Source: Methanotrichaceae archaeon | GTDB lineage: Archaea > Halobacteriota > Methanosarcinia > Methanotrichales > Methanotrichaceae | NCBI GenBank assembly: GCA_963754945.1 | Contig: CAVWIG010000032.1 | Coordinates: 1-50,652, forward strand | DNA: 50,652 nt | Reading direction: 5' to 3' | Part shown: positions 7,058 through 29,207 of the stretch, piece after piece | How positions within the stretch are numbered: the stretch's first letter is position 1 | How the letters are laid out: each line of letters opens with the position of its first letter | The notes under the pieces: generated by a model | What the model saw: the letters and a program-made list of their open reading frames with translations, nothing else | What the model was told of the DNA's origin: nothing | Databases searched by the model: none | Translations under genes and position numbers: made by a program

Positions 7058-10000
7058 GTTTCAATGGAGCCACTTCCTTTCAGAAATGGATAGAATAGAA
7101 ACGAAGGGCAGGCAGTTTATTGTCGAGGGGTTTCAATGGAGCCACTTCCTTTCAGAAATGGATAGGTAAAAATGTACTTCTGTGGGGCCCCGGTGGACAT
7201 GGTAGTTTCAATGGAGCCACTTCCTTTCAGAAATGGATAGATGACGAAGCTCTTAGCGCTGGCTTCAGCGTAACGGCTGTTTCAATGGAGCCACTTCCTT
7301 TCAGAAATGGATAGCTCGATGGCGCTGGTTTGGAAACATTTAAAAAGATTGGGGTTTCAATGGAGCCACTTCCTTTCAGAAATGGATAGAATGAATGGAT
7401 CGCAGGCCTTTATTGATCTGTTTGGTTTCAATGGAGCCACTTCCTTTCAGAAATGGATAGATCGTCAGCGCACCTTGCGTCGGCGATATAAACATGAGCG
7501 TTTCAATGGAGCCACTTCCTTTCAGAAATGGATAGCGCAATCTGCGGCGGACAGTAGGAGGGTATGACTATGTTTCAATGGAGCCACTTCCTTTCAGAAA
7601 TGGATAGGTTCCTAAAATCGCTGTAACTATGCCGCAAGCCGCGATGTTTCAATGGAGCCACTTCCTTTCAGAAATGGATAGGCTGGGATAGCTGCAACCT
7701 CGGCAATGGAGGATAAAGTTTCAATGGAGCCACTTCCTTTCAGAAATGGATAGGTTCCTAAAATCGCTGTAACTATGCCGCAAGCCGCGATGTTTCAATG
7801 GAGCCACTTCCTTTCAGAAATGGATAGATGAGGGAGAAGTTCAAGGCCGCAGTTGGGCTAAACAAGTTTCAATGGAGCCACTTCCTTTCAGAAATGGATA
7901 GCTATTTGTCCTGATGCACTCGCCGTCAAGGCTCCAAAGTTTCAATGGAGCCACTTCCTTTCAGAAATGGATAGCACAGTCAAGGTGTACGACACGGGTC
8001 GCGAGAGGCTGTTTCAATGGAGCCACTTCCTTTCAGAAATGGATAGCTTAAGCCTGGGGTGACAAAAAACATATCGTTTGAACGCGTTTCAATGGAGCCA
8101 CTTCCTTTCAGAAATGGATAGCTTGCCCCAGCAACTTATCCGTTCTTGCCTTTTAAGCAGTTTCAATGGAGCCACTTCCTTTCAGAAATGGATAGAGACT
8201 CAGGAATTGATATTTGAAGCTCCGGGTGCGGTGTTTCAATGGAGCCACTTCCTTTCAGAAATGGATAGGAAAGACTGCCTCGATCTTCTTAACAGTCAAA
8301 GGGGGTTTCAATGGAGCCACTTCCTTTCAGAAATGGATAGGACACTCACGAAGTCTCGGAAAGAGGGAGCTATGACTGTTTCAATGGAGCCACTTCCTTT
8401 CAGAAATGGATAGATCGCCATAGCGATCAAAGACAGCATTGATTATGTTTACGTTTCAATGGAGCCACTTCCTTTCAGAAATGGATAGGGGCCACAGGGT
8501 GATCAGGCTTGACGTATACGATTGGATGTTTCAATGGAGCCACTTCCTTTCAGAAATGGATAGACGCATCGGTGGTGACAAGGACGCGAGAATGCCCGGA
8601 CTGCAGTTTCAATGGAGCCACTTCCTTTCAGAAATGGATAGATGTTTCGCTGTGCAGCGACAGCAAGACATAACGAGTTTCAATGGAGCCACTTCCTTTC
8701 AGAAATGGATAGGATTATTTGCACCGTCGTTTACATAGCAATTAAATCGTTTCAATGGAGCCACTTCCTTTCAGAAATGGATAGCTGGGGTCAGTGGAGA
8801 CATCGTTGAGCAACTATCAAGGTTTCAATGGAGCCACTTCCTTTCAGAAATGGATAGATGAATGGAAGATGAATTACCTGCTATCCTCGAGGTGTTTCAA
8901 TGGAGCCACTTCCTTTCAGAAATGGATAGGTAAGTCCGCCAACGACTAACCATTACCAAATATTGGGTTTCAATGGAGCCACTTCCTTTCAGAAATGGAT
9001 AGTCGTTATATATCCATGACGGTGGCTTATGGTAAGGGGTTTCAATGGAGCCACTTCCTTTCAGAAATGGATAGACATTGTGATGTTGTGCGCTCGGTCG
9101 GATGGAGTATGTTTCAATGGAGCCACTTCCTTTCAGAAATGGATAGAAGGTGGATTGTGGGACTACCTTATGACCCCGCCCGGGTTTCAATGGAGCCACT
9201 TCCTTTCAGAAATGGATAGGGGGCACTTCAGGATCAACATGCGACCGATATTGTTGTTTCAATGGAGCCACTTCCTTTCAGAAATGGATAGCTGTGTGAA
9301 GGAGGGTGGCATGGACCAGCGGTGGAGCGTTTCAATGGAGCCACTTCCTTTCAGAAATGGATAGGAACAAGAGTCTCCAGCTCTTCCTGGATCTATCGCA
9401 GTGTTTCAATGGAGCCACTTCCTTTCAGAAATGGATAGGCTGGCCGAACAGAGATCCCTTGATTAATAGAGCTTTGTTTCAATGGAGCCACTTCCTTTCA
9501 GAAATGGATAGCTGGCAGGTTGGATTGCGAAGCATGCGAACTTATGAAGTTTCAATGGAGCCACTTCCTTTCAGAAATGGATAGAGTTTAACAGCCTGAA
9601 CGAGTCTTATGCTAGTATTCTGTTTCAATGGAGCCACTTCCTTTCAGAAATGGATAGATCCAAAGGAAACTGTGTAATAGCGGATTGTGGTGTTTCAATG
9701 GAGCCACTTCCTTTCAGAAATGGATAGATCCTTTCTGGACTCGATAGAACGGCTAACGCCTCAAAGTTTCAATGGAGCCACTTCCTTTCAGAAATGGATA
9801 GAGTTTAGTTGGTGATCAGGGATTGAAGCCTACGTTGTTTCAATGGAGCCACTTCCTTTCAGAAATGGATAGGAAAGATGCCTTGGCTGGCTTTGCTTAA
9901 GCGCACGCGTTTCAATGGAGCCACTTCCTTTCAGAAATGGATAGACGGTTGTATGGATAGTCTCGGCTGACGAGTATTGTTTCAATGGAGCCACTTCCTT

Positions 10001-10162
10001 TCAGAAATGGATAGTGCAATATTTGATTATAATACGATGTAATCTCACTCGAGTTTCAATGGAGCCACTTCCTTTCAGAAATGGATAGGCGATTGCGCTT
10101 TTATAGCTGAGACTTAAAGTCACATCGTTTCAATGGAGCCACTTCCTTTCAGAAATGGATAG
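7058..10162 (-). CRISPR. CRISPR array: 43 copies of a 36-bp repeat, 42 spacers of about 34-42 bp
   Basis: Plus-strand repeat GTTTCAATGGAGCCACTTCCTTTCAGAAATGGATAG; the reverse complement ends in canonical ATTGAAAC; degenerate repeat at left and leader/cas2 at right give minus-strand transcription. Confidence 0.99.
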
Positions 10163-10411
10163 AGCGGCCATTTTAAGGCCCTTACTGCTATCGGAAAAAA
10201 TCCGATTTGCGAGCGTTCCGTTAACCATACAATCATTTTATGAGTGTTTGGCACTTGGAAAACAACAATTCGATATGCAGATACTTTGCGAGCATACCGT
10301 TAACTATATGCAAGTTTTTTTGAAGTGCGTATGTCGTCTCAGGAGTTTTCGTAATACTGGCCTTCTGATAGCCCATCTACCTCCTGGACCCACTGACACG
10401 TCGGTGCGACT
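10163..10411 (-). promoter_or_regulatory. CRISPR leader
   Basis: Non-coding interval between the cas2 stop and the first repeat; contains a 24-bp imperfect direct repeat (10206-10229, 10285-10308). Confidence 0.8.
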
Positions 10412-10708
10412 TCATACTATAATAAACTTATCTTCTTTATCCTCATGGTGTACGCCCAGAAATTCTATCCTATCATCGGCTCCTCCTTCCGTAGGACCCA
10501 TATCAATGATCATTATGCGATCTTCATCGACCTTGATCAGCTCACTAAGAATTGCCACCATCTCTACCCGGCTCTTCGGAGTGAGATCGCAGCGAAAAAC
10601 GGAATAATGGACCGGCTGGCCGAACCCTTTCATAGCAGTATGAACTCTGCACAGCCTCTTTCTGTCCATAATATCATAGCTAACTACATAACAATTCAGT
10701 CCGCTCAT
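10412..10708 (-). CDS. cas2: CRISPR-associated endoribonuclease Cas2
   Basis: YVVSYDIMDRKRL...GFGQPVHYSVFRCDL; directly downstream of cas1. Confidence 0.97.
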   Translation of the reverse strand: MSGLNCYVVSYDIMDRKRLCRVHTAMKGFGQPVHYSVFRCDLTPKSRVEMVAILSELIKVDEDRIMIIDMGPTEGGADDRIEFLGVHHEDKEDKFIIV

Positions 10709-10714
10709 GCATCC

Positions 10715-12415
10715 TCACCTCGTTGTGAAAGCCGGATACTCTTTTATCTCACCTGAGAGAACCCTGGCCAAAAGCCGGGACTGTACTTCCAGTATCCTTC
10801 GATTGTTCACCTTATACCCAAAGATGGGATGGACGACCTCGGTCTGCATGCGGTGCTCGTAACCTGCAACCACCTTTCTCCTGGCTTCAGGGGTTAACGA
10901 TATCCCGATGCCTGTCTTGATAAAGTCGTTTCCATTGAGCTCTTCTTTGTTAAAAAGGGTCAGTGCCGTAGAATCAGCTATTATTGGCCGGAACTCCTCC
11001 ATCATATCCAGAGCCAATGCCGGTCGACCGTACCTGGGCTGATGGTAGAAGCCGAGATAGGGATCAAAGCCTACAGCCAGAACGGTCGAGAAGAGTTCCT
11101 TGGTCAATATGCCGTAGAGATAGGAGAGGACGGTGTTGACTGGATCTCTAGGGGGCCTCTTATTCCGGTTTTGGAACGAGAAGTCTTGTGAGCACTTGAG
11201 CATGTTTCCGAAGCGGCCAAAGTAGATCTCAGCCGCGGCACCTTCGAATCCCAGCAGACTCGGCATGCGCGAGGCGTCTTCCGCCTGGCCAGCGAGCCGC
11301 TCCAGAGAATCCAGCACATCCGAAGGTACATCCGGATCATTTCTGCGTAAGAGAATCCTACAGTTCTCGATCTTACCAGATACGATTTTCCGGGCTATGG
11401 ATAGAGATCGCGCCTCATTACCGGCCCACTCGAACTGCTTTATGCGAAGCTCCACATTCTTGTGGCTCATGCCGAGACAGATACCCTGGAACCAACCTCC
11501 ATGAGAAAAGTGCAGCACTGGAACGCCTCGTTGCATCAGCTCGACCGTGGCCGGGGTGGTAATCTCAACTCCACCATAAAGGCAGACCTTGGAGATCTCC
11601 CGGATCCTGGCATCGCTGATCTTGCCCTCATCATGGGACCAGACCTCCAGGCGCTCGCCGCGCTTCCTAACCGTCTTCCCCTGGCCAATCACATAAAGAG
11701 GTACTTGGTCGTCCCGCATGGGAAGAAGCATCCTTACCTTCTCATCCCTGGGATCAATTTCCAGATTTCTTTGTTGCTTCTTTTCCGCCTCCATTTCTCG
11801 CAGTAGGTTGACCTCATCGGGCAGGCATATGCCTGCCAATGAACAGCGATCGCACCGATAGCTGCTCTGCAAAGGAGGCGGAACTTCGCCACGCTCAACG
11901 GTGTTTCGCAGTGCGGCCAGCAGTGCCTTTGTTCGGTCCATCAGGGCAAGATCGAACTTCACGGGCACCCTTTCCTGGGAGTGAATGAAATAGACCATGC
12001 CTTCGTCACATTGAAAGCCGTTCTCTCGCAGAGCTAGGCACTGAGCAGCGAGCTGGACCTGAAAATGCTCATAGAGGCCCGCGGGAGTTTTAGGTGCCTC
12101 ACCACGCTTGTACTCCACGGGAGTGACTTTGTTGCCATCTCCTTCTAGCAGATCTAATCGGCAGCACACTCCCGCCTGCGGAGCGGTCAAAGAGACCGAG
12201 CGGGCATGGAAGGGCTGGAAATCCTCAGGGATAGCGTCTTGCTCGGCGTCGACCCAGCGGTGCTGGAACCTCCCATCTACTGTCTCAGCGCTGTCCTGGA
12301 ACTCTCCCTGAACCCACTGGATGTAACAGAGCCGAGGGCAATAGGCAAAGGCTGCGAGCATGCTGGCTGGTATGAGATCTGGAACGATGCCTTGATTCTG
12401 ATCTGCTTCTGCCAA
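10715..12415 (-). CDS. cas1: Cas4-Cas1 fusion (type I-G-like adaptation protein)
   Basis: Cas4: CPRL, LDLLE..PVEYKRG, QLAAQ, CDRCSLAGIC. Cas1: LLGFEGAAAEIYF, RNKRPPRDPVN, GFYHQ, LALDMMEEFR. Likely TTG start at 12415 after GGAGG (the ORF track starts at 12511, inside a repeat). Confidence 0.96.
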   Translation of the reverse strand: MAEADQNQGIVPDLIPASMLAAFAYCPRLCYIQWVQGEFQDSAETVDGRFQHRWVDAEQDAIPEDFQPFHARSVSLTAPQAGVCCRLDLLEGDGNKVTPVEYKRGEAPKTPAGLYEHFQVQLAAQCLALRENGFQCDEGMVYFIHSQERVPVKFDLALMDRTKALLAALRNTVERGEVPPPLQSSYRCDRCSLAGICLPDEVNLLREMEAEKKQQRNLEIDPRDEKVRMLLPMRDDQVPLYVIGQGKTVRKRGERLEVWSHDEGKISDARIREISKVCLYGGVEITTPATVELMQRGVPVLHFSHGGWFQGICLGMSHKNVELRIKQFEWAGNEARSLSIARKIVSGKIENCRILLRRNDPDVPSDVLDSLERLAGQAEDASRMPSLLGFEGAAAEIYFGRFGNMLKCSQDFSFQNRNKRPPRDPVNTVLSYLYGILTKELFSTVLAVGFDPYLGFYHQPRYGRPALALDMMEEFRPIIADSTALTLFNKEELNGNDFIKTGIGISLTPEARRKVVAGYEHRMQTEVVHPIFGYKVNNRRILEVQSRLLARVLSGEIKEYPAFTTR

Positions 12416-12495
12416 TCTTGAGCCTCCTTTTCTTTTTATCATATGATTTTCAGCAATAAAAATGATCTGAGAACTGTCTCCACAAATTATCCGGT

Positions 12496-12620
12496 GTTTC
12501 AATGGGGCCACGACTTCATGTCATGGAATTTTTTGCCATCGATTTGGATGGATCATGTGGCTTGATTCGGCAACAAACGAGGTTTCAATGGGGCCACGTC
12601 TTATCAAGACATGGGAATAG
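12496..12620 (-). CRISPR. Mini-array of two divergent repeats flanking one ~50-nt spacer-like sequence
   Basis: GTTTCAATGGGGCCACGACTTCATGTCATGGAATTT (12496-12531) and GTTTCAATGGGGCCACGTCTTATCAAGACATGGGAATAG (12582-12620); same orientation and same ATTGAAAC end as the main array. Confidence 0.85.
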
Positions 12621-12745
12621 CTACGGTCTTGGGCCAGTCGCATCGCAACAGCTCATTCGCTTTCTGACCCACTCCATCCTTCTGGCAGGATGGCCCTGGC
12701 CCATCAGGGGGCATGCTGATCCAGATATCTTTGATGATCATGATG

Positions 12746-13024
12746 CTACTTTTCTTCGGGTATGGTTACATCAACAACTTGACCAATGGTGAACGAGGGG
12801 TTATGGCTGGCTACGATGACTGCTCCTAGCCTGGGATCGTAGAAGGCAATGGCTGCTGCTGGCGAGCCATGCAGCAAGTGCAGGGCCATACCATATCGCC
12901 AAATTGGTGCACGGCCTTCCACAATTACCAGCGAGCCGCGAGGGATGTCAGGCAACGGAGGAAGTGGCTCGTTTGGCGTTATAGGGTGATCTACGCCGAT
13001 GGAGTAGACTACGTGATTCAACAA
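12746..13024 (-). CDS. crn3: CRISPR ring nuclease Crn3 (Csx3 family)
   Basis: EGRAPIWRYG..LHLLH...AFYDPRLGAVIVASH signature; 92 aa; in the cmr operon. Confidence 0.9.
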   Translation of the reverse strand: MLNHVVYSIGVDHPITPNEPLPPLPDIPRGSLVIVEGRAPIWRYGMALHLLHGSPAAAIAFYDPRLGAVIVASHNPSFTIGQVVDVTIPEEK

Positions 13025-14313
13025 TTCAACTCCTCCACCTTCTTGGGAAATATAACCTCTGAAATGAGCTGTAAAATATTGGGATCGTGATCAAGCTCCG
13101 ACATAGCCAGCTTTCTGATGGCGTTGCCTGGAATTATTATGCAACCATAGAGTTTAGCCCTTGTCCCAATGCTACATCTTATCTTGCCTTCTTCCAGGAT
13201 GTTTTGAGAAGTCGTTGCAAGGTAGGATTTTACATTCAGAGCACCGAGCTGTTTCTTTATGGCCTCGACCTTGTAAAGAGTATCATTTCCCATCGGGTCG
13301 TGATCTTGGATGCCAGTCTTGCATTCTATGAACCTCAGAGACTGGTTGTACATGAAGGAGACATCCCAGTCATTCCTGACCTCACTTTTTGAGTCTTTCT
13401 TGCTATCCTTCTTGCTGTCCTTTTTTCCCGGATTGAGACCAAGGCGCACGTCCCAAATATTGAGCATCTGACTATGTTTGCACAACAATCCCCAGAAGAA
13501 AACTTCCAGCCACCCTCCCGTCAGGAACTTTACTGCGTTTTTATCTAGATTCCCACTCAAGCCATTCTCGTTCTCGTCCAGTTGGAAATCTTCCGCCAAT
13601 AAATTCAATATCTGTCGATCTTGAACTTCAAAATTGACAAGAGGAATCCCTCCGCCACGGGCTTTTTCCCGAGCCTTCTCTTTATACTTATTTTCGTATC
13701 TCTCTTTATTTCCGTACTTCTGTATTATCCATCGGTCCAGATCATGCATTATTTCGTGGGCAAGATCATAATTGGCCGCAAGATGGGCAGAAAGATAGAA
13801 TAGCTTTTTTGCAAGATCTTCATCTGCTTGGACGATATCCTCCTCTTTTAGGAAATCGAATCCATACCCAGCCAGAAACTCCTTGATTGAAACATTATAG
13901 TCCAATGGAATCTGAGAATTATCGGCAAAATTAGTGGCATGGCTCTGACGGCCTATGGATACGTAAAGCAACTTCGCGCCTTTATCCTTGAAAAATTCAT
14001 AGGCTCCGATGGACATAGGTTTCGTACCGCCGGTGAGATTGACCACCCATTCGGCACCTGGATGTTCAATGAAAACAGTTTCAAGCTTTTTCATTGTGGC
14101 CGATACGGAGTTTCCGTCTTCAAGGCAGACAATTTCACGTCCTCCTGTATAACCCGACTCGCCGTAAGCCAAAGCTTTCATGAAATTTTGAGCCGCATTT
14201 TTCTTCTTCATCTCTGGAGTAACTACGAGGATCAGTAGATCTGGATTTTCGACTCGAACCGTCAGAAAATTAGGAACGTGCTGATCGCTGACGAGGCAGA
14301 GGAGGATCTTCAT
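13018..14313 (-). CDS. Can2/Card1-like CARF plus PD-(D/E)xK nuclease effector (DUF1887-like)
   Basis: CARF motifs CLVSDQHVPN and VNLTGGTKPMS; nuclease motifs FLTGGWLE, NDWDV, FIECKTG. Confidence 0.88.
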   Translation of the reverse strand: MKILLCLVSDQHVPNFLTVRVENPDLLILVVTPEMKKKNAAQNFMKALAYGESGYTGGREIVCLEDGNSVSATMKKLETVFIEHPGAEWVVNLTGGTKPMSIGAYEFFKDKGAKLLYVSIGRQSHATNFADNSQIPLDYNVSIKEFLAGYGFDFLKEEDIVQADEDLAKKLFYLSAHLAANYDLAHEIMHDLDRWIIQKYGNKERYENKYKEKAREKARGGGIPLVNFEVQDRQILNLLAEDFQLDENENGLSGNLDKNAVKFLTGGWLEVFFWGLLCKHSQMLNIWDVRLGLNPGKKDSKKDSKKDSKSEVRNDWDVSFMYNQSLRFIECKTGIQDHDPMGNDTLYKVEAIKKQLGALNVKSYLATTSQNILEEGKIRCSIGTRAKLYGCIIIPGNAIRKLAMSELDHDPNILQLISEVIFPKKVEELNC

Positions 14314-15467
14314 CGTCTCCTCCTGGTGTCCTTCCGTTTCTGACTTTCGTGCTCCTCCCTCGATCCGGGAACTGCGAAATTGTACCCCTCGTTCATCCTT
14401 CCCGAGATTTCCAGTCTAGCAGTCTTTCCGATATCGATATTTGGGGTTTTCCCAAACATGACAATTCCGCCAAAGCCGTCATCCGCCTTGAACCATATTC
14501 GACCCTTATTTTTCGGGTCCTCAGTTCTCTTGGCATCGACGATCTCCCCCTTTTCATGGCGTGGATCTGAACTGATCGGCGCGGCGGATACGGTTTTGGC
14601 AACAGGCTGATCTGGCCCGATTGAGCCGGATGTCGACTGCGTATTTTGGACTAGTTTGGCGGAGGAGGCGACCTTCTCCAACCGCCCATATCCAGCATTT
14701 GTTTTGCCACCGATGCCCCATTCCCGGAGTGCCTCGGAGAGCATATCAAAAACAAGTTGGGCCCACTTTTTCCCTTCATCTCCCGGAACATCACACGAAA
14801 CGGCTATGTGAAAAGTTCCGACGACTGACAGGAAGGTAACCGGATTCGGATCATCGAAGTCTGTGGGCGCTCCACTGCCAGAGTAATAATCACCATGATG
14901 TGGGGTCATGACATCCGGTTGCAGTGACTTAGTTAGAGTCTCCGGAGTGAGCCAGGCATCGTGAAAGATGATATGTCCCGAATCATCCGTGGTTCCGAAG
15001 ATGGCCTTGTGATATGTTCCTCCTGGAACTCCTTCACGCCATCTCTTGAATTCATCTCCTTGATCTCTGGCACCCCACACTTGATCGCAGTAGTGGGAAG
15101 CCAATCCTTTCAGTGCTGTCCCAGGAATTAAAGGAGTTCCATAAGTATGATTAAGCGAGAGCCCAGTCTCCAGCACATTCCCGCCACCTAGACCAATCAC
15201 CATTCTCCCCTTTGTATTGAAGAAGCCTTCTGCTTTTGGGTTCTGAAGAGACGTTAATTGTCGCCTGTAAGCAGCCTGGTAAACTGTTTCTGACTTATCA
15301 AAAGATTGACACATCGCATCAAAAAGATCTCGGCGTGCTACAGGGTGATTCGCTTTGTCCTTTACTGCTACTCTCAAATATCTATCTCTGAGGAGAGCCG
15401 CATTTGCAGCCATCGGGTGCTCCTCCTTCCACCATTTAGAGACAGCAGCCCGGCATGAATCCGCCAT
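14310..15467 (-). CDS. cmr6: Type III-B RAMP Cmr6
   Basis: GRMVIGLG, YGTPLIPGTALKG, DVMTPHH, DFDDPNPVTFL, GIGGKTNAGYG. Confidence 0.95.
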   Translation of the reverse strand: MADSCRAAVSKWWKEEHPMAANAALLRDRYLRVAVKDKANHPVARRDLFDAMCQSFDKSETVYQAAYRRQLTSLQNPKAEGFFNTKGRMVIGLGGGNVLETGLSLNHTYGTPLIPGTALKGLASHYCDQVWGARDQGDEFKRWREGVPGGTYHKAIFGTTDDSGHIIFHDAWLTPETLTKSLQPDVMTPHHGDYYSGSGAPTDFDDPNPVTFLSVVGTFHIAVSCDVPGDEGKKWAQLVFDMLSEALREWGIGGKTNAGYGRLEKVASSAKLVQNTQSTSGSIGPDQPVAKTVSAAPISSDPRHEKGEIVDAKRTEDPKNKGRIWFKADDGFGGIVMFGKTPNIDIGKTARLEISGRMNEGYNFAVPGSREEHESQKRKDTRRRR

Positions 15468-15468
15468 A

Positions 15469-15816
15469 TCAATCCGTCCCCAGTAGCGCCTCAGAGTAGC
15501 GCTTAAGCCAGGTTGCAGATTCTATGGCCTCATAAGTCAGCCGTTGATATTTCATCAGATCTGAATTTCTGCTGGTCGCTCCCAGGTCTCCCTTCTCGTC
15601 CATAACCTGAGCGAGATGAGAGATGTAGTCTCTTCCAGTTGGCCCTTCTTTTGCGCTAATGAAAGCCAGCGCCTGAGCAAGCCCGCAAGATTGCACTAAA
15701 GCCGGAAATCTCTTGGACAGCTGGCTATAATCTTCATCACCTTTAGATCTGGTCGAGACGCAATCATAGGCCTTCTGTGCCCTCTTCTGCTGTCGGGTTT
15801 GATGTTTCTCGGCCAT
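15469..15816 (-). CDS. cmr5: Type III-B small subunit Cmr5
   Basis: FPALVQSCGLAQALAF...WLKRYSEA; between cmr4 and cmr6. Confidence 0.93.
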   Translation of the reverse strand: MAEKHQTRQQKRAQKAYDCVSTRSKGDEDYSQLSKRFPALVQSCGLAQALAFISAKEGPTGRDYISHLAQVMDEKGDLGATSRNSDLMKYQRLTYEAIESATWLKRYSEALLGTD

Positions 15817-15820
15817 GATT

Positions 15821-16717
15821 CTAGCTCCTCGTGAACAGGCATCTAACGCGACCTTTGCCGACGGTTGCCTTGCCCCCTATCTGCAGGTCCAGCTTGTCCT
15901 TCGTGCAGTATGTCTCCAATATTTTACTCCTGGTCATCCCATTGCCGCCGAAAACCCTATCACACCAGGCGATTCCGGCAAGTATCGCTTCTGCAGGAAG
16001 GGCTTCCTCGTACCAGAGTGCTCCTCTGGCCACGATCTTTGTATCGTCTTCGATCCTAACGTGTGCAGTCACTTCGGTGCCGGTCTTTGATAGGAAGTTG
16101 AAGCAATCATCGGATAGGATTGCAAACCGCGCTTCAAAGATTCCTTTCCAGACAGCTTCTTTGGCTAGTTCCTTAGGAAAGATGACTTCCGCCAGCATCT
16201 CGGCCCATTTCTTTGCATTTTCATCTTCCTTTGCCTTAAAATCTAGATCTTCAAAGAAGACCTGTCCCTCACCGGCAATCTTCGATCCCTTAACGAGCAA
16301 GGCTTCATTTCTTGCAGGATTGGAGACCGAGCGAAGATCCTTGTAACCAGCGGTCTCAAGATCTCTCTTGAGCCTCTCCAGAACCAGCGGACTGGTAATG
16401 TAAGCAAATGTTCCATAAAGGCTTCTTACCGGCAAGCAGACGATATGAGCATCGGTGAGGATCAGGGAACCTGCATTGGACGAGTCATCTACAATCTGTT
16501 TTCCGAAAGCTACGTCTATGAATTTCTTCTGATCATCATTTCCATTCAGGAAGAAGTGATCCCTCAGCACGCCTTTTGATGCCGAGCCGGGAACAAGCGG
16601 CCAGTCCGTGACCTTCTCCCTCATGATAGGCATGTCTATGAATCCAACTCCCTTACCTGCTCCAACGTGCAAAGGCGTTATCGCCTGCAGCCAGTACATT
16701 CTAGTGTTATTCTCCAT
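15821..16717 (-). CDS. cmr4: Type III-B backbone nuclease Cmr4
   Basis: TPLHVGAG..GFIDMPIMRE..TDWPLVPGSASKG, ALWYEEALP, QIGGKATVGKG. Confidence 0.96.
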   Translation of the reverse strand: MENNTRMYWLQAITPLHVGAGKGVGFIDMPIMREKVTDWPLVPGSASKGVLRDHFFLNGNDDQKKFIDVAFGKQIVDDSSNAGSLILTDAHIVCLPVRSLYGTFAYITSPLVLERLKRDLETAGYKDLRSVSNPARNEALLVKGSKIAGEGQVFFEDLDFKAKEDENAKKWAEMLAEVIFPKELAKEAVWKGIFEARFAILSDDCFNFLSKTGTEVTAHVRIEDDTKIVARGALWYEEALPAEAILAGIAWCDRVFGGNGMTRSKILETYCTKDKLDLQIGGKATVGKGRVRCLFTRS

Positions 16718-16730
16718 GATCCTGCACCTC

Positions 16731-17972
16731 CTATTCCCGCTCTTTCACAATCTTTTCATCCGCATAATCCCAAATGCCCCACAGGGCCAAGCCGAAGCCA
16801 TCCCGGCGGTCCTGCCTATCGTCACAGACTGATTTTAGCCAGAGGTTTTTGGCCAGAGTTGTTGCGTCTCCATTTCCCTCTATCTCGAAGAAGTAAACCG
16901 ACCCAGCAGGCACTAATCGCCTAATGGGCTTAGGGCCAGGCTTAGACCCATGTCTGTCATCTTCGAGGCTCCAGCCAGAGATTGGCTTCCAGCGATCGAT
17001 ACAGGCTGAGACAAGCTTAAGCTTCAGTCCATCAGGCCAACCATCAGGTGCTCTATCTTTTGGCCAACCCCTTAGCCAGCCGGGCTTCCATCCATCGGAA
17101 AAGATGGCGGGTGTCGCCAAAATCATGCGAATCTTCTTATTTCCTGTAAAATCTGAGGCCAATTCCGATGGGAAGTTCCAGTCATCCAGAGCTTCTTGTA
17201 CCCTCCAACGAGCCAGCCGCCGCTCTCCTCCAATTGCATTAAATAGATCGTAATTTGCCGCCAGATTTGTGAAGTCGCTTTCATCTTCAACTCTAGCAGC
17301 AAGCTCGATCCCTTCCGTTTGCCCCTTAACAGAGAGGTCAAGCCCTATAGTCTCAAAGAGCTTGGTATCCTCAGACGTTCCAAGCTTAGGGTCGATCTTA
17401 ACATGAGTTCTTGGCTCTTTTTGAGGAAGATTTAAGAAGGCTGTATTTTTTGCGATCGTCTCAGGGTCTGGTGGAGATTCGAAGCCGTCACCTCTGGCAT
17501 TTATTAACCATTTTTTCATAATCTCCATAGACCAGAGTGATGGAATTTTGGCCGGTTTGAATTCGTCTTCTACGCTCTTGGGCAACATTGACGGAAGGAT
17601 ACCGCCTGGCGGAAGATCACTATTACAGCCTTTCCACTCATCTGCATCAATATCCACAGGCCTGATTGCATAAGCATAAGGCTCTCGCGTCTTGTTCTCT
17701 TCTTTGACTAGGAGATCCTTTGGTGCCGGGAGGTATATTCTGCCTCGGCAAAGAGGTAGCGGCCCTGAAATAGAAATACGCTTCAGGGACTCAATTGTTT
17801 TCTCATCGAAATTGCTGTCCGTTCTATTTCCCAGCATTGTTCTAAAGGCTCCAGCCAGAACTGAAGGATAGAGCCAGTCCAGAGATTTCATGCGGATGCC
17901 CAAACCAAAGGGACGACCATCTCTGGCAATAAGGGGGTCATGAGCGGTTATTCTTAGGTAAATCGCCATCAT
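16731..17972 (-). CDS. cmr3: Type III-B Cmr3
   Basis: DPLIARDGRPF, IGGERRLA, LATPAIFSDGW, VPAGSVYFF, RRDGFGL. Confidence 0.95.
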   Translation of the reverse strand: MMAIYLRITAHDPLIARDGRPFGLGIRMKSLDWLYPSVLAGAFRTMLGNRTDSNFDEKTIESLKRISISGPLPLCRGRIYLPAPKDLLVKEENKTREPYAYAIRPVDIDADEWKGCNSDLPPGGILPSMLPKSVEDEFKPAKIPSLWSMEIMKKWLINARGDGFESPPDPETIAKNTAFLNLPQKEPRTHVKIDPKLGTSEDTKLFETIGLDLSVKGQTEGIELAARVEDESDFTNLAANYDLFNAIGGERRLARWRVQEALDDWNFPSELASDFTGNKKIRMILATPAIFSDGWKPGWLRGWPKDRAPDGWPDGLKLKLVSACIDRWKPISGWSLEDDRHGSKPGPKPIRRLVPAGSVYFFEIEGNGDATTLAKNLWLKSVCDDRQDRRDGFGLALWGIWDYADEKIVKERE

Positions 17973-19873
17973 CGTACCTCCTGGTGCAGCTGCTCGTTGA
18001 TTTGGGGTTTCCTGCCTTTTGCCTGTTTCATAGCGGTTGCCAACCTTCGGGCAAGGATTAGCTCAGCTGCTAATCCACTGATTGCCTCATAGGGATTTGC
18101 ACCCGTCAACATAGCTTCGATATTCTCTCTCGTGAGGAGATCAGACTTGGTTTTGCCTTTCTTGCGTTGGAGGAGCCTCAGTGCATCGGCGGCGATGAGG
18201 TGTCTCAGCTTCTCCTTCTCGTCCTCAGAAGATGCATCCCAGTTTTTGTAATCCTCCGCCAACTCGTGCATTTCATAGGCTGCGCTGTCAGGCAACTCAT
18301 CCCTGCAGTGCATTTCGGCCCATATTTGGAGACGTTCATCAAGTCCTTTATTCCCTTTGAGCGTCCACTTCTGCCTGATTTTGATCGGAGCGCCGCTTCT
18401 TGGGTAAATATTCACTGCAAAACCGTCTCGTTCATCGTCTGCTAATTTCCCTTCTTTTGCAGCTTTTTCAGCTTCCATTCCGAAGCCTAAAAGGTTCTCC
18501 AGAGGCTCCAGATAATGTCCAATGGCAATTCCCACGGAGAGCGTTAACGGGTTTCCTTTCTCATCCGGAAAAGCCTTTAGCATCTCCCCAAATTTATCAT
18601 GAAGTTTCCTTGCGGCGTCAAGGCAAGTATCCACGGGCAGGAAGGCCAAAACATCGTCTCCACCTGAAAAGACCATACAACCATGAAACTCGTTCTCCAC
18701 AATATTTCTAGCTTCAGAAGCGAAATAGGCAAGTTGTCCTGAAAGTCTGCGATGCTCATCAACGAGATCGATGGCTGAAAGAGCTTTCCCCATTCGATCT
18801 CCATCGGCCCTCAGAACGGCCAAATAGTTGTTTGGCTCTCCGAGTCCAAGGCCGCCATCCCTCTTTTTTTGAAGCCTGCAAACTTTTTTCTCAATCTGAA
18901 TTAATTTATTTGGATCATCCTGGTATGGATTATTTGCATCCAAATCGGTTGAAATATCCTTGAGGTTGTCCTTAGCTCTGGCCAGGCGGGATGGATATAA
19001 GATCTGTCCATCGAAGGGAAACTCCTGATAAAGCCTGTTTCCTGTGCCGGTTGAAAAGCTGTTCTCCCCTTCGCAGAGAATTTCTATTTCATCTAGCAAC
19101 CTATTTGCTTCATCGCCGGGATATTTTCTTATTCCTCTGATCCAAGGGTCTGCCGCCACTCGTACCACTGATGGAAATGTTACCCGCTCACCGTTTGGCC
19201 GCTTGCCTAATCGTTTAGTCAGGCCTACTGCGCAAAGTTGTTCTCCATCGTTAAGGCGCATTTGAAGAGAAAGCCATTTGGGAAGAGATCGATCTTTTTC
19301 AAGAACACTTTCCCTGGCACCGTCGAGCGATGATTTTGGAATTCCAAAATGACCCTTTGCCTCCTTGAAGTCTCGGATAGACTTCCTGCCAGCCAAAAGA
19401 CGCATCACTTTCGTCCGAGTTTTCTTGTAACTCTCACCCTCTGGAACCCAGGCTGCATAGAATTCAATGATGTCATTGACCTGATCATCCCAAATTTCCT
19501 GGCCTAATTTATCTTTGCGAACAGCCCTTCCTGCATCGCTTCTTGCCTTTTCAGCCAAAGTCATCCATTCCCTCTTTGCAGCAGCCTGCGCTTTTTCATT
19601 TAGAGTTATTGGGTCCTCGGTTCCTTCAGGCAATCTTGCCAGAATTATATTTGCCACGCTGAACTCATTATCGGAGAATTCCAGCCTGGGATCCCCTTTA
19701 TCCAGGGCAGGAAATATCAAATATCCACCGGAATGCGCAATCTCCCTTGCTGCTGCCTTGCTGATAAGGGAAAGGAGATAAGACCCAAACCATAGGTCTC
19801 TTGTACGACGGGCTGCAGCAATGAAATCCTGCACAGGGCCGACGGAGAGGACATACAGATAAGACGACATCAA
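17969..19873 (-). CDS. cas10: Cas10/Cmr2 without HD domain, cyclase motif intact
   Basis: Begins at SVGPVQDFIAAARRTRDLWFGSYLLS (no N-terminal HD); ADGDRMG and FSGGDDVLAF palm motifs. Confidence 0.96.
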   Translation of the reverse strand: MMSSYLYVLSVGPVQDFIAAARRTRDLWFGSYLLSLISKAAAREIAHSGGYLIFPALDKGDPRLEFSDNEFSVANIILARLPEGTEDPITLNEKAQAAAKREWMTLAEKARSDAGRAVRKDKLGQEIWDDQVNDIIEFYAAWVPEGESYKKTRTKVMRLLAGRKSIRDFKEAKGHFGIPKSSLDGARESVLEKDRSLPKWLSLQMRLNDGEQLCAVGLTKRLGKRPNGERVTFPSVVRVAADPWIRGIRKYPGDEANRLLDEIEILCEGENSFSTGTGNRLYQEFPFDGQILYPSRLARAKDNLKDISTDLDANNPYQDDPNKLIQIEKKVCRLQKKRDGGLGLGEPNNYLAVLRADGDRMGKALSAIDLVDEHRRLSGQLAYFASEARNIVENEFHGCMVFSGGDDVLAFLPVDTCLDAARKLHDKFGEMLKAFPDEKGNPLTLSVGIAIGHYLEPLENLLGFGMEAEKAAKEGKLADDERDGFAVNIYPRSGAPIKIRQKWTLKGNKGLDERLQIWAEMHCRDELPDSAAYEMHELAEDYKNWDASSEDEKEKLRHLIAADALRLLQRKKGKTKSDLLTRENIEAMLTGANPYEAISGLAAELILARRLATAMKQAKGRKPQINEQLHQEVR

Positions 19874-21165
19874 ACCACCTTCACGAAGCCGTTCTCCTCT
19901 GCAAAGGCGAGGAATCCTTCAATGGCCGATCCCGATGAGGAGCGTGCTGGCGCACCCGTTCTCGGCCCGCCCATTGGAGAATTGGGATAGCTGGCCAGCG
20001 CTGGATCGCGTATTTTCTTGAATCTTGGGCTCCCTTGGGCCTTTTCCAAGACTACTTCATCCGGAACAGGAGCATTTAGCTTGAGAATCAATTGTATTAC
20101 TTCTCCATTTCTGCAGATTAGGGGCTTCAGGATCAGCGGGCTTGACATTCTTGTTTTCTCTTGCCCGTTTACTACCGGGTACAGCTCAGTATCTTTGGGA
20201 TCTCCAATATCCTTGAAATGAAAAACAATTGGCAGCCCAAGCTCTGCTCTGGGAAATGCATCATTAGGAATCGCCGGCATTCGAGAATGTCGTGCAAATC
20301 TGCTGGAAGTTGCCTGCCTAATGGCCTCCGGTTCGGGCCATCTTGAACGTCCGGGCCGGTTCGGGCTTGATCCAGGATTCCTGCCAACACCTTGACCTTG
20401 CCTAAAGGTTTGCATCAGGCCCACTACATCCGACCATCCCTGCAGTACATTGTTACTATTATTATCTCGAACGCGGAATTTATCCGGCAGAGTTGGCCAC
20501 TCCTGCGAGCGGGATAGATCAACACCAAGGCCATCTAGGAAGGATTTGTACCACGAATTTAATGATTCTCTTTTAGGGGAAAGCTCCTTACAGTACAATG
20601 CACCGCAGCCACGCCTTGTCCTGGCACCAATCCCTCCAAAATTGGTCCAGGCCCAGACGGCAGCATCTACTTCCATAGATAAACTTTGAGGATGAGTCAA
20701 CTTCATTTCAAACAGGACATTGGTTGTACAGTTGGCCGGAGGAATGCCATCCCTTTTGTTTCCCTGAAATGGAAATAATGCATAAGACGGATGGTTCTTT
20801 TCGAACCTGGGGAAGTTTTTATCCTCCGGAAAATATGCACAAGGGTATTTTTTCCCTGGAGATTTTAATTCAATTTCCAAAGCAACTCTACTCGGGTTCT
20901 CAGTCGTCCCCCAAATCTCGCCTTCAATCTGGCGCAGTTCTGCTCCACTCCTGCATTTTGCTCCCCTTGTCGCCCTCCACCAGAATCGCAGGTGCCCTCT
21001 GATGCTGGAAGGCCGGATGAGCGTTACAGGATCATTTTCGCCTGCTTTGACGCCACCTCCAAAGATAGGTGTAATCACCTGAATGGCGTAGGTTTTCGAA
21101 ATCATGTCCGGATGAGATTCTACTTCAGGAAGCTTATCCGGAAATTTCACGATGCTGCGCGACAT
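19870..21165 (-). CDS. cmr1: Type III-B RAMP Cmr1
   Basis: ITPIFGGG, IRPSSIRGHLRFWWRA, FGGIGARTRRGCG, GLPIVFHF. Confidence 0.95.
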   Translation of the reverse strand: MSRSIVKFPDKLPEVESHPDMISKTYAIQVITPIFGGGVKAGENDPVTLIRPSSIRGHLRFWWRATRGAKCRSGAELRQIEGEIWGTTENPSRVALEIELKSPGKKYPCAYFPEDKNFPRFEKNHPSYALFPFQGNKRDGIPPANCTTNVLFEMKLTHPQSLSMEVDAAVWAWTNFGGIGARTRRGCGALYCKELSPKRESLNSWYKSFLDGLGVDLSRSQEWPTLPDKFRVRDNNSNNVLQGWSDVVGLMQTFRQGQGVGRNPGSSPNRPGRSRWPEPEAIRQATSSRFARHSRMPAIPNDAFPRAELGLPIVFHFKDIGDPKDTELYPVVNGQEKTRMSSPLILKPLICRNGEVIQLILKLNAPVPDEVVLEKAQGSPRFKKIRDPALASYPNSPMGGPRTGAPARSSSGSAIEGFLAFAEENGFVKVV

Positions 21166-21212
21166 TATTATTCCACTCCTGCAATTCTTCTATCTCATTA
21201 ACCAATTGATCA

Positions 21213-22187
21213 TTATTCAACATCATCACCGACAAATCCCCCCATCCCAAAATGCGCCCCGTACCCGACAGCCAACAGTCCCTGCACCAGCTCAGGGAAC
21301 TTGATCCTATAACCGTAGCCTGCCCCATTCGCAACCGGCCTTCCCTCACCCGTCTCCCTCCGACGCAGGAAAACATGCCACGCCACCTCCTGCTCGCCAA
21401 GTTTCGTGCCTGCCACAGGCTCGACCGCCACTGGAGCCGGAAATCCTCCAAGTTCCAGCAGCCTGCGCAGATCGTGTTCAGGGCTGCCGATTTGCAGGCC
21501 GCTGGCGTCCCGCTTAGGCACGCCCGCCCGAGTGGCCTTGGGGTGACGCGTGGGGATAAAGGGCGTGCGAGAGACCCAGGTCCTCGACTCTGCGAGTAGA
21601 GGGCCCTGACCCCGACTCAGATTCAAGCCGCCGAAGTGCTCCGGGCGACCTAGACCGAGGAGGTTGAGCTGAACGTAGAGGCCTGACCCCTGGATCTCTT
21701 TGAGTTCTTCGAGGGCTGATACCTCCGCAGAACCGAAACCAGCCGGTGCGTAAACAGTGACATGGGTGATCTCTCCGTTCCTGCCCCTTCCCAGGGCCAT
21801 GTTGGACTCGCTAAAAATGAATGCGTGGGCGTGACCTTTCCGCGGGCTTCCAGACTCATCGCACCCTGTAAAGACGCTTGATCCATTCGACAGCTCCACC
21901 AGAGCGAGGTGAATCCTTTCCCCAAGGAGAAGGGCAGCGGTGAGCCTGGGAGCCTGGCCGCCAATTGAATAGCGTGCTACGGTAAGTACATCTTTTCCGA
22001 ATGCTAAGGCATTCTGGCTCGATGTCTTTTCTAATGTGGGTGCTAATCTCCCTTGAAAAGAATGGACTGCAGAAGCTGGTCTGCCTGCTACAACTCCTTG
22101 CTCGAAATTGTCAAGGCCGCGCTCGACATCAGGCCCGCTTGGGTTCAATCTCCCTCCCTCGATTACCCAATTTTTATGCCCAGACAT
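21213..22187 (-). CDS. csb2: Csb2-like (type I-G) protein comprising only the C-terminal Cas6-like half; probable crRNA maturase
   Basis: TVARY..PRLTAALLLGERIHLAL, GHAHAF, WVSRTPFIPTRH, C-terminal G-rich loop AVGYGAHFGMGGF; first gene of the cmr operon. Confidence 0.8.
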   Translation of the reverse strand: MSGHKNWVIEGGRLNPSGPDVERGLDNFEQGVVAGRPASAVHSFQGRLAPTLEKTSSQNALAFGKDVLTVARYSIGGQAPRLTAALLLGERIHLALVELSNGSSVFTGCDESGSPRKGHAHAFIFSESNMALGRGRNGEITHVTVYAPAGFGSAEVSALEELKEIQGSGLYVQLNLLGLGRPEHFGGLNLSRGQGPLLAESRTWVSRTPFIPTRHPKATRAGVPKRDASGLQIGSPEHDLRRLLELGGFPAPVAVEPVAGTKLGEQEVAWHVFLRRRETGEGRPVANGAGYGYRIKFPELVQGLLAVGYGAHFGMGGFVGDDVE

Positions 22188-22507
22188 ATGTTGGGCACAT
22201 ATTCTTCGTCGTCGAAAACAAAATGATGTTCTCAGATAAAAAGGTAATCAGTGGTGAAAAGACTTACCAAATATTCTTCCATGAAGTTTGATTAAGAGGC
22301 TATGATGTCTTCAGGAAGAGAGATGGTCTTCATCCACATCTATCAACCACATTCGCCCTCACTGCGCTAACGTTGGAGACTCTTCGATTCGATAAGAGTC
22401 TACATGAGACTCATTGACCAGCACGATTGTGCCGACATCGGGAGTTGGCCCGCCACTCATGGGATGAGTATGCAAGTTGAATATTCTCAAAAAAGATGAG
22501 CTTCGTT

Positions 22508-24016: not shown

Positions 24017-24025
24017 TTTCTTATC

Positions 24026-28025: not shown

Positions 28026-29207
28026 GTGCACCATAACATTAATTTTGCAAATTAATATAATGCCTGTTTAGCTTTAATCTTGCATCATTCTTCGTGAATT
28101 TCCATCTTACAGTAGTTTTTTTTGCGTTACGTTCTTGTGCCCACACCGAAGCCTCTTTGGTTAAAGTATCGATGTCTCCAATCCGACGATCGAGGCATTG
28201 CTTCGATAGGGCTGAGAGTTCTATCTCAGCCATGTTGAGCCAGCTACCTTTCTTTGGCGTATAATAATATTCGAACTCCTTAGCCAGCTCAAACGCCTCT
28301 TCAGGCGCAAAAGCATTATAAAATGAGCCTGAAGTATGCGTATTGAGATTATCCTGGACCAATCGAATGGATTCTACACCTGGATATTGCTGGGTAAGTT
28401 CTTTCATGAAATGGGCGTAGTCCACCCTTGTCCTGTGCTCCATGACACGAATCATTCTTTTTCCTGCATGAAGATCAAAAGCAATAAGGATGCAACATGT
28501 CCCGTTACGGACGTATTCATAATGCACCTTCTTCGGACTGCCTGGTTTCATGGGTATAGGCACTAAGACATCGCCTATCAGTTGGCATGGCCTCTCGTCG
28601 AAACAAACCACAGGATGCCTCGGATCATATGGTTGCTCGTACAGAGTTAATACATTTTCCATGTTCCAGATATATTCGCTCGTCATGCTCCCTATGCACC
28701 ATCGCTGTTTGAGCCATGGCTTTATTTCATTTTTTTTAACGCTCTGCAAACGCTCATTCCTGAGATCGAGTCCACTTCCCCCAGCTCAACAAGCTTGTCG
28801 GCCAATAGATTCAGCGTCCATCTCGATCTGCCTTCAGGCGGATCTGAGCAAGCAATGCCGGTCAGTTTAGCCTCAACTCGTGCATCTATCTTCGGAGGCG
28901 CTCCACTGCGAGATCTTTCATTCAATGCAGATTCCAGGCCACCCTCGAAATATCTCTTTCTTATCCTCACTATTGTCGTTCTGCTCGCCTTCAATGCATC
29001 AATGATCTCCGCATCGGATTGCCCTCCATCGGCCAGGAGCAGTATTCTTGCGCGAGTTAAACTCCTTGCAGACGACTTCCCACGACGGATGTACTGGTTC
29101 AACTCTTCTCGTTCTTTCTCTTCCAGTTTCACACAGAATATTGTTTTTCTTGCCACAATCTATATTCTAGACCTTTTATAAGATTTAAAACTTGCGTTAT
29201 GGTGCAC
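28026..29207 (-). mobile_element. IS630-family element, apparently intact (two ORFs joined by a probable -1 frameshift)
   Basis: TIRs GTGCACCATAAC / GTTATGGTGCAC, TA duplication at CTAG; ORFs 28722-29156 (HTH) and 28039-28749 ([20 protein letters not shown]) overlapping at an A-run. Confidence 0.95.

Follow-up and report, generated by a model that had tools for sequence, protein, structure and literature searches.

We analyzed a 50,652-nt stretch of contig (the window) from the genome of a Methanotrichaceae archaeon, which encodes on its minus strand a complete type III-B (Cmr) CRISPR system. Between the csx3/crn3 and cas4/1 genes of this system lies a mini-array that consists of two divergent repeats, copies B and A, followed by the 32-nt guides 1 and 2, respectively. 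Guide 1 is antisense to the 16S ribosomal RNA (rRNA) and guide 2 to the 23S rRNA of Patescibacteria-type bacteria, and the mini-array is probably a conserved two-guide gene for CRISPR RNAs (crRNAs) that direct the Cmr complex against these rRNAs. The coordinates of all features are collected in Table 1. Throughout, the letters G, L, C, and X label genomes, loci, contigs, and sequencing runs; the host genome, G000, consists of 54 contigs and is 87.7% complete.

Repeats, guides, and rRNA targets

The preliminary description of this stretch, which was made from the sequence alone, had placed two divergent, fold-forming repeats on the minus strand between csx3/crn3 and cas4/1, and both the positions and the folding were borne out. 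The copy B hairpin folds at -10.6 kcal/mol (z -3.45, 0/200 shuffles as good) and the copy A hairpin at -9.1 kcal/mol (z -2.73, 2/200 shuffles as good). The two copies are 51 nt apart (12581-12531) and share an identical 17-nt 3′ end, which is one base off the main repeat. A repeat finder grouped them as family D5 (copies 12488-12511 and 12574-12597, 86 nt apart), the sole repeat-like copies outside of the main array, and the 45 matches to the repeat-tail motif among the host contigs are all located on the window contig, within the array and copies A and B. As expected of a type III-B crRNA gene, each hairpin repeat carries an 8-nt 3′ tag in the transcribed orientation of the array. An Rfam search of 12300-12900 returned only sub-threshold CRISPR-DR matches (E 0.21-2.9). 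The distance from the repeats to the cas4/1 start, previously given as ~80 nt, is 81 nt when counted to the TTG at 12415 and 54 nt when counted to the ATG at 12442.

Compensatory changes in the upper stem had been described for this pair of repeats, and an alignment of 20 repeats was used to evaluate them. The alignment contained five upstream or first-repeat mini-array copies, two second-repeat copies, the extra repeat of L071, and 12 array repeats, with the mini-array copies coming from six loci and the array repeats from related ones. In this alignment, 96.9% of the cells have the 8-bp stem paired, compared with 32-56% for slid controls. Four of the eight stem pairs vary on both sides, and the covariation score is 0.402 versus 0.139 in shuffles, none of which (0/500) reach the observed value. 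The compensatory changes are therefore real, yet they are a trait of the whole repeat family and not special to the pair. The two stem types also occur as genuine array repeats in related genomes, where the stem of copy B is of the L004/L007 type and that of copy A of the L008/L011 type.

The 51 nt enclosed by the two copies had been read as a single, self-structured spacer of ~50 nt, and neither part of this claim stands. The self-structure was rejected because shuffled sequences are equally stable (z -0.08, 83/200 shuffles as good). Moreover, only the first 32 nt are conserved, and a second 32-nt guide, located after copy A, had been overlooked.

The first clue to the identity of both guides came from peat. 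The region 11900-13200 was compared with the assembled contigs of one DNA run and three RNA runs. Contigs from two of the RNA runs, with depths of 35 and 46, matched 12549-12581 at 31/33 positions, and an RNA-library contig with a depth of 3053 matched 12464-12496 at 30/33 positions. These matches begin at the repeat/spacer junctions and are flanked by rRNA-type sequence, not by repeats. Contigs of the mini-array occur in the same peat RNA libraries as the rRNA-type target contigs.

To locate guide 1 more widely, a 32-mer pattern was used in which positions 12 and 18 were free and all other positions were fixed. The pattern was found at 49 metagenome loci (47 in rRNA-gene context and two in CRISPR context) and at 12 loci in a collection that represents 185,579 species by a single genome apiece (10 in rRNA-gene context and two in CRISPR context). 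All told, 57/61 matches are one site in the bacterial 16S rRNA gene, read antisense. The other four are the CRISPR loci L088 (identical to the G019 locus), L090, L071, and L074. Ten of the 57 16S targets carry titles, of which eight name Patescibacteria lineages (Saccharibacteria in three, Patescibacteria group in two, and Parcubacteria, Paceibacterota, and Minisyncoccales in one each) and two name only a bacterium. Rfam placed SSU_rRNA_bacteria on the strand opposite guide 1 in both loci that were checked, L050 and L096.

Likewise, LSU_rRNA_bacteria was found on the strand opposite guide 2 in L098 and L099. Guide 2 is complementary to the 23S rRNA with one mismatch (position 12) in G132 and G397 and with three mismatches (positions 5, 6, and 12) in G129 and G400, so that four of the 10 genomes that bear the 16S site of guide 1 also carry the 23S site at up to three mismatches. 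The 16S and 23S rRNAs of the host differ from the guides at about half of the aligned positions, and the host genome holds no further copy of either guide 33-mer. Both guides therefore point to one set of foreign organisms rather than to the host. Among the collections scanned, the antisense complementarity is restricted to Patescibacteria-type rRNA.

The guides are antisense to the rRNA, which is the orientation that RNA targeting requires. In addition, the sequence flanking the target matches the tag at only 2-3/8 positions. Complementarity to a foreign transcript next to a noncomplementary anti-tag, as needed to license Cas10, is what a type III-B crRNA gene should display. A TTN is present upstream of the protospacer in all three registers. 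A Cas4/Cas1 fusion is described as selecting a TTN protospacer-adjacent motif (PMC6547450), which suggests that the guides were once acquired from Patescibacteria ribosomal DNA by such an adaptation module.

Substitution pattern and conservation across genomes

To compare guides, positions were numbered from the repeat junction and mismatches were scored against the commonest target in nine guide copies. All mismatches within nt 1-32 fall at position 6, 12, or 18, and none fall at the 27 non-sixth positions. For guide 1, the window, L074, and L071 have mismatches at positions 12 and 18, while L090 and G019 have one at position 18 only; among the 57 16S targets, position 18 is invariant, whereas position 12 is occupied by either of two bases. 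For guide 2, the mismatch is at position 12 in the window and L090, at position 6 in G019, and at positions 6 and 18 in G005. The G019 and G005 copies of guide 2 use a register that lies 12 nt away within the same part of the 23S rRNA, with exactly 32 nt kept. In all nine copies, and in both registers, the complementarity ends abruptly at nt 32-33; between guide 1 and its target, mismatches accumulate from nt 33-34.

This pattern corresponds to the known geometry of the Cmr complex. In Cmr and in other complexes with a Cas7 backbone, every sixth guide nucleotide is described as flipped out and unavailable for pairing (PMC8376896, PMC11127173), and Cmr complexes with 40-nt crRNAs, made up of an 8-nt tag and a 32-nt guide, have been described (PMC8376896). 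The first seven guide positions, except for the sixth, are reported in the same source to be required for the synthesis of cyclic oligoadenylate (cOA), and guide positions 1-7 except 6 are all paired with the target here. The states of the nine copies imply a minimum of six separate substitutions, and all are at the five every-sixth positions of the 32, which, calculated by hand, has a chance of (5/32)^6 or ∼1.5e-5. To arrive at six events, it is enough to consider the window, G019, and G005, which were found by position-blind searches, together with the guide-2 data. Mismatches that occur only where the Cas7 backbone flips nucleotides, along with the stop at nt 32, argue for selection for pairing inside the Cmr complex.

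The mini-array is conserved in a second genus. The preliminary description had set the orthologous locus as a check beforehand, and the check was positive in G019, whose Cas4/1 is 62-64% identical in amino acids to the protein of the window. The G019 locus has the same layout as the window, namely the upstream element, a repeat, guide 1, a repeat, guide 2, and cas4/1. Between the two loci, guide 1 is 94% identical (30/32), compared with 74% for the upstream element, 21% for the remainder of the first spacer, 65% for cas4/1, and 57% for third codon positions. The mini-array was also found in three further public contigs (L090, L074, and L071), and G005 has a one-repeat form with guide 2 only. 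In every genome-resolved or long-contig carrier, the element has a type III effector module on one side and cas4/1 on the other. Three of the genome-resolved carriers, G000, G019, and G005, belong to the archaeal family Methanotrichaceae. The hairpins and tags are retained wherever the guide is retained; L071 and L074 are without copy A and guide 2, showing a decayed repeat where the guide was lost. The earlier view that the repeats are maintained and not decaying is therefore supported by both the conservation in a second genus and the selection footprint of the guides.

Several variants of this arrangement were found. The upstream sequence was read at 11 orthologous loci recovered with a Cas4g/1g probe over 61 related genomes; G017 has a full second array, G005 a single repeat, and G031 a 17-nt repeat fragment. 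The G017 array (G017:C2, L004) is complete, with four repeats and a degenerate fifth, lies at the position of the mini-array, and has a leader that resembles the main leader. In the peat DNA run X2, a variant (window 12582-12646) has copy B joined directly to guide 2, with guide 1 and copy A lost, and its guide 2 agrees with the target at position 12; run X2 contains the two-repeat form as well. In G115 (G115:C10, L034, 230-310), a decayed guide 2, with two substitutions and a 1-nt deletion versus the target, follows a truncated terminal array repeat, indicating that guide 2 can also sit at the trailer end of an ordinary array. Upstream of its anti-16S guide, L071 has an extra degenerate repeat and a 36-nt spacer (5333-5441); this spacer had at best E 0.8 against five Patescibacteria genomes. 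A match in the G005 array that seemed to extend into guide 1 was rejected, as it is an unrelated spacer with 25/32 mismatches.

These variants bear on the possibility that the mini-array is a neutral relic, that is, what is left of the trailer end of a former upstream array, in which the final two spacers came by chance from Patescibacteria ribosomal DNA and have not yet decayed. In general, spacers at the trailer end tend to be the oldest and to be shared most widely, and such an origin would be consistent with the complete array and leader at this position in G017, with the decayed guide 2 behind a degenerate terminal repeat in G115, and with the loss of copy A and guide 2 from L071 and L074 and of guide 1 from G005 and the X2 variant. 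The upstream sequences of the 11 orthologous loci, considered alone, would make a relic likely, in agreement with the survey of Shmakov et al., in which two-repeat units beside type III-B loci, present at 12% of such loci, were judged to be degraded repeats (PMC10120712). However, the units in that survey have no positional conservation and no targets and were deemed nonfunctional, whereas the mini-array has both, with its position conserved in G019, L090, L074, and L071. Neutral decay also predicts mismatches anywhere, not at least six substitutions confined to every-sixth positions, and does not account for complementarity that stops at nt 32 in two different registers, for a guide 1 that is 94% identical between genera when adjacent noncoding sequence is 21-74% and third codon positions are 57% identical, or for hairpins and tags that are kept with the guide and decay where it is lost. 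The preliminary description had named a match of both repeats to other arrays as the mark of a relic. Formally such matches exist, yet the pairing-specific footprint of the guides means that resemblance to array repeats does not make the mini-array a relic, and we consider the relic explanation unlikely.

Proposed function and relation to known systems

Taken together, the anatomy of the mini-array, the antisense complementarity, the conservation across genera, and the position-specific substitution pattern support a two-guide crRNA gene for the Cmr complex. That the element could release a guide for this RNA-targeting complex had been proposed before, and it is now the most likely reading. 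We infer the following course from transcription to physiological outcome. Transcription of the minus strand would either begin at the conserved upstream element or result from read-through out of cmr-card1-csx3. The hairpin repeats would then be cleaved 8 nt before their 3′ ends by an enzyme of the Cas6 type, which is probably the Csb2-like protein, leaving an 8-nt tag and a guide. Once the 3′ end is trimmed to the length that the complex covers, crRNAs of 40 nt, with guides of 32 nt, would result. In type III crRNA maturation, 3′ ends are made by trimming, so that a guide without a downstream repeat is workable; accordingly, guide 2 would not need one. Loaded into Cmr, guide 1 would pair with the 16S and guide 2 with the 23S rRNA of Patescibacteria (bacteria of the candidate phyla radiation, CPR). 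Binding of the target, together with the noncomplementary anti-tag, would switch on the Cas10 cyclase, whose product cOA would in turn activate the nuclease of the Card1 type, with Csx3 resetting the signal. The outcome would likely be arrest or death of the parasitized cell.

Contigs from the RNA libraries span the upstream element together with copy B and guide 1 (X16), the stretch from copy B to copy A (X17), and the end of csx3 with the upstream element (X15); stretches without RNA-contig cover were given no weight. The X15 contig ends at 12624, 4 nt before copy B, and its reading as a transcript end was rejected, as it is a single contig.

The biology of the host family provides a possible setting. 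Methanothrix belongs to the family of the host of the window, and Patescibacteria of the class Paceibacteria are reported to attach specifically to Methanothrix filaments, where parasitized filaments have more cells with little or no ribosomal signal in fluorescence in situ hybridization and where cell walls are deformed at the attachment sites (PMC9600506, PMC10936435). The guides match Patescibacteria rRNA genes, while the partnership is documented for Methanothrix generally and the named parasite genomes lay outside of the search. Our broader proposal, for which we see the arguments as evenly balanced, is a germline-encoded, innate-like CRISPR receptor, in which the Methanotrichaceae type III-B system, along with a mobile island common to a bacterium, would use two hard-wired crRNAs against Patescibacteria 16S and 23S rRNA, the best conserved and most plentiful RNAs of an entire clade of cellular parasites, to trigger shutdown of the parasitized cell through cOA and Card1. 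This would require that ribosomes or rRNA of the parasite enter the host cytoplasm, and the low-ribosome cells in parasitized Methanothrix filaments could be an abortive immune response.

The position of the mini-array within the row of cas genes, directly 5′ of cas4/1, is reminiscent of Cre-type elements (CreA/CreTA and CreR), which likewise are described as having two divergent repeats around a conserved spacer-like sequence between cas genes (PMC10120712, 10.1101/2023.03.10.532045). As in these elements, the position is conserved in related loci and two degenerate repeats enclose a spacer-like sequence. Two readings follow this comparison, a Cre-type regulator that would tune cas or host genes through partial pairing and hairpins that act merely as cleavage sites and split the cas4/1-cas2 mRNA from the interference genes; the preliminary description had raised both a regulatory guide and cutting of the cas polycistron by the Csb2-like nuclease. 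A cut at copy A would necessarily sever any read-through transcript, and the window and L090 are mosaic at this point, with 77% identity upstream and 93-100% downstream. However, Cre-type elements use type I or V-A effectors on DNA and partial matches to promoters of the same locus, whereas the mini-array is accompanied by Cmr proteins only, without a DNA-binding type I or V-A effector, and matches a foreign RNA over its full 32 nt. The absence of a convincing spacer target in the window, noted previously, extends to the whole host genome, in which complements of the guides are only 11-17-nt chance matches, and a search of 105 genomes of the order that allowed up to three mismatches yielded no complement either. 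A 17-nt exact match of spacer nt 31-47 (window 12535-12551) at C23:16049-16065 was rejected as a target, as it is in the same sense and lies outside of the conserved 32 nt; this match is intergenic, contains a small palindrome, and is probably due to chance. Lastly, a mere cleavage site would not conserve the sequence 3′ of the repeat. Both forms of this explanation are thus very unlikely.

A functional pair of guides could also serve another target or purpose, such as the sensing of transcripts from incoming Patescibacteria DNA or from a mobile element with rRNA-gene fragments, the modulation of a tolerated symbiosis, or a role as cargo of a mobile island that acts mainly in bacteria. This possibility arises from L090, which belongs to G402:C7, a 642-kb contig with FlgG, from a genome with a bacterial rRNA operon. 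The G402 loci L090, L117, L118, and L119 were compared with window 7058-13014 and 20891-23985, revealing 89% identity over cas4/1, the mini-array, and csx3, 90% over the Csb2-like gene and Bax1, and ∼65% over the cmr genes. Based on these mosaic identities, the island appears to have been exchanged between archaeon and bacterium, with the anti-Patescibacteria guides travelling along. A simple archaeal-bacterial contig join is an unlikely account of G402, as the similarity ends at the island borders, although a chimera is still possible. Moreover, spacers of bacterial hosts against Patescibacteria epibionts have been reported, including a type III-E case (10.64898/2026.09.16.751625). On the other hand, no mobile-element copy of the sites was found and two scans of viral collections, one with a core pattern of guide 2 and one with a 23-mer of guide 1, gave 0 matches each; all 57 non-CRISPR matches are in rRNA-gene context, and three of the genome-resolved carriers (G000, G019, and G005) are members of the archaeal family. 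A purpose of this kind is therefore rather unlikely.

Several observations weigh against guides that direct Cmr to Patescibacteria rRNA in Methanotrichaceae. Guide 1 is rare, being present in 2/105 genomes of the order and 2/392 of the class, eight of the 11 Cas4g/1g loci are without any upstream repeat, and the element has been lost piecemeal in G005, L071, L074, and G115. A position-blind BLAST search with the whole mini-array over the 105 genomes of the order returned many repeat-only matches and a single extended match, G019, with no homologue beyond it. The independent lineages are few and related, and L090, L071, and L074 were retrieved with the other positions fixed, so they provide no independent test for guide 1. 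The 23S site is weak (G398) or not found (five others) in 6/10 CPR genomes, some of which may lack an assembled 23S gene. None of the 42 main-array spacers matched CPR loci (best E 0.008, 15 nt) or five CPR genomes (E 0.32) above chance level, so that the array shows no indication that these bacteria are still being targeted adaptively. The RNA support consists of assembled contigs, for which DNA carry-over is possible, and the archaeal assignment of the window contig rests on binning and one MptN-like gene (339 bits, cut-off 350), a methanogen-type gene of the tetrahydromethanopterin ligase type. Because G402 is bacterial, the link to Methanothrix parasitism is not exclusive and may be only part of the picture. 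Finally, the words penetrat-, cytoplasm, and intracellular do not occur in PMC10936435, and we found no evidence of Patescibacteria rRNA entering the host cytoplasm.

Among known systems, the homing guides of CRISPR-associated transposons (CAST) of type I-F3 are similar to the proposed guides in that a fixed, inherited guide with atypical repeats and tolerated mismatches is directed to a highly conserved cellular gene (PMC9723613). Those guides differ in that they steer the transposon into the chromosome of its own host by means of effectors that bind DNA and have no nuclease, whereas the target of the mini-array is the rRNA of another organism, read as RNA. No transposition genes were found among the annotated proteins of the cas locus and its flanks, and the target is absent from the host genome. 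The delocalized crRNA of type V-K CAST is reportedly likewise a fixed guide with atypical repeats.

Host spacers directed at episymbionts offer a second comparison, as they are a memory against a cellular epibiont, with one type III case described (10.64898/2026.09.16.751625). Esser et al. (2023) are said to have described CRISPR spacers of Altiarchaeum versus its episymbiont Huberiarchaeum. These are described as ordinary array spacers against the protein-coding or repetitive DNA of one partner, for example open reading frames in repeated regions (10.64898/2026.09.16.751625). In contrast, the mini-array lies outside of the array, is conserved across genera, addresses two rRNAs at sites common to several Patescibacteria classes, and bears the substitution footprint. 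We found no report in the literature of natural rRNA-directed guides or spacers or of such a conserved guide set, although the supplementary tables of PMC10120712 and 10.64898/2026.09.16.751625 might hold related cases.

CRISPR immunity is understood as an adaptive memory against viruses and plasmids, and type III mini-arrays have been dismissed as debris. If confirmed, the mini-array would be the first inherited CRISPR guide set against the rRNA of a cellular parasite and would resemble the sensing of bacterial rRNA by the innate immune system of animals. It would also open to testing how hosts defend themselves against CPR/Patescibacteria episymbionts and whether cytoplasmic contents are exchanged between the partners. 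As practical uses, functional, fixed class 1 guides could be recognized from sequence alone, by complementarity that ends at the ruler length and by drift that is confined to every sixth position, and the two guides are natural designs with which type III systems could detect Patescibacteria rRNA.

Locus organization and neighboring features

The order of features on the minus strand is the Csb2-like gene, cmr1, cas10/cmr2, cmr3-cmr6, Card1, csx3, the mini-array, cas4/1, cas2, the leader, and the main array. Complete Cmr effector genes accompanied by a cyclase-competent Cas10 are a further property expected at a type III-B crRNA gene; the Cas10 translation retains the GGDD cyclase motif, and the Cmr3 profile score is 94.6 bits, under the 100.4 cut-off. 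From type I-G, the Csb2-like half and Cas4g/1g are present. Canonical Cas6 (PF01881) was not found in the 87.7%-complete host genome, and the Csb2-like protein is a candidate pre-crRNA endonuclease. The Card1/Can2-type nuclease is likely the cOA-activated effector.

Table 1 Features of the type III-B locus and the mini-array in the window
Feature	Coordinates	Strand	Description
Csb2-like gene	21213..22187	-	TIGR02165, 70 bits, model positions 244-489; Cas6-like C-terminal half only of the type I-G Cas5-Cas6 fusion
cmr1, cas10/cmr2, cmr3, cmr4, cmr5, cmr6	14310..21165	-	GGDD motif in cas10/cmr2
Card1/Can2-type CARF nuclease	13018..14313	-	PF23400 and PF09002
csx3/crn3 ring nuclease	12746..13024	-	Between Card1 and the intergenic element
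Conserved hairpin-rich intergenic element	12621..12745	-	∼125 nt, between csx3 and the mini-array
Repeat copy B	12582..12620	-	39 nt, 9-bp hairpin and 12-nt tail; last 8 nt are the prospective 5′ tag of guide 1
Guide 1	12550..12581	-	32 nt, antisense to Patescibacteria-type bacterial 16S rRNA
Remainder of first spacer	12531..12549	-	Unconserved, target complementarity gone; 21% identical to G019
Repeat copy A	12496..12530	-	35 nt, 7-bp hairpin and the same 12-nt tail; prospective 5′ tag of guide 2
Guide 2	12464..12495	-	32 nt, antisense to bacterial 23S rRNA of the Patescibacteria type; not followed by a repeat
Decayed 3′ continuation of guide 2	12416..12463	-	Merges into the cas4/1 promoter, 5′ untranslated region, and ribosome-binding site
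cas4g/cas1g fusion	10715..12442	-	Adaptation; NF049935, 709.5 bits
cas2	10412..10708	-	Between cas4/1 and the leader
Main-array leader	10163..10411	-	Between cas2 and the array
Main CRISPR array	7058..10162	-	43 exact repeats and variants, spacers of 34-42 nt, 3.1 kb

The intergenic element directly upstream of copy B qualifies the earlier statement that the mini-array has no evident leader: a conserved 125-nt element (12621-12745) is present, for which a leader or promoter role is only possible. The element can be aligned 5′ of cas4/1 in L090, L074, L088 (G019), and L031 (G005), is visible in L002, L005, and L007, and is 74-90% identical to the window copy. It may be the 5′ leader or promoter of the mini-array transcript or a structured 5′ RNA, and Rfam holds no family for it. 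The element is found in eight loci irrespective of the presence of repeats downstream and of which gene is upstream, and its stems, judged by eye, appear to vary compensatorily among loci.

Within the main array, the repeat-spacer units at 7572-7681 and 7718-7827 are 100% identical over 110 nt, which represents a duplicated spacer pair (family D4). Immediately beside the type III-B locus, a gene pair (22508-25366, minus strand) encodes a Bax1-like nuclease and an XPB-type helicase. The island common to G402 likewise includes Bax1 (NF053694, 326 bits), and the corresponding region there is L118 5500-7071. Farther along the window, transposase-like genes with two open reading frames (28039-29156, minus strand) are near-identical to G000:C23:14211-15328, which points to a multicopy insertion sequence.

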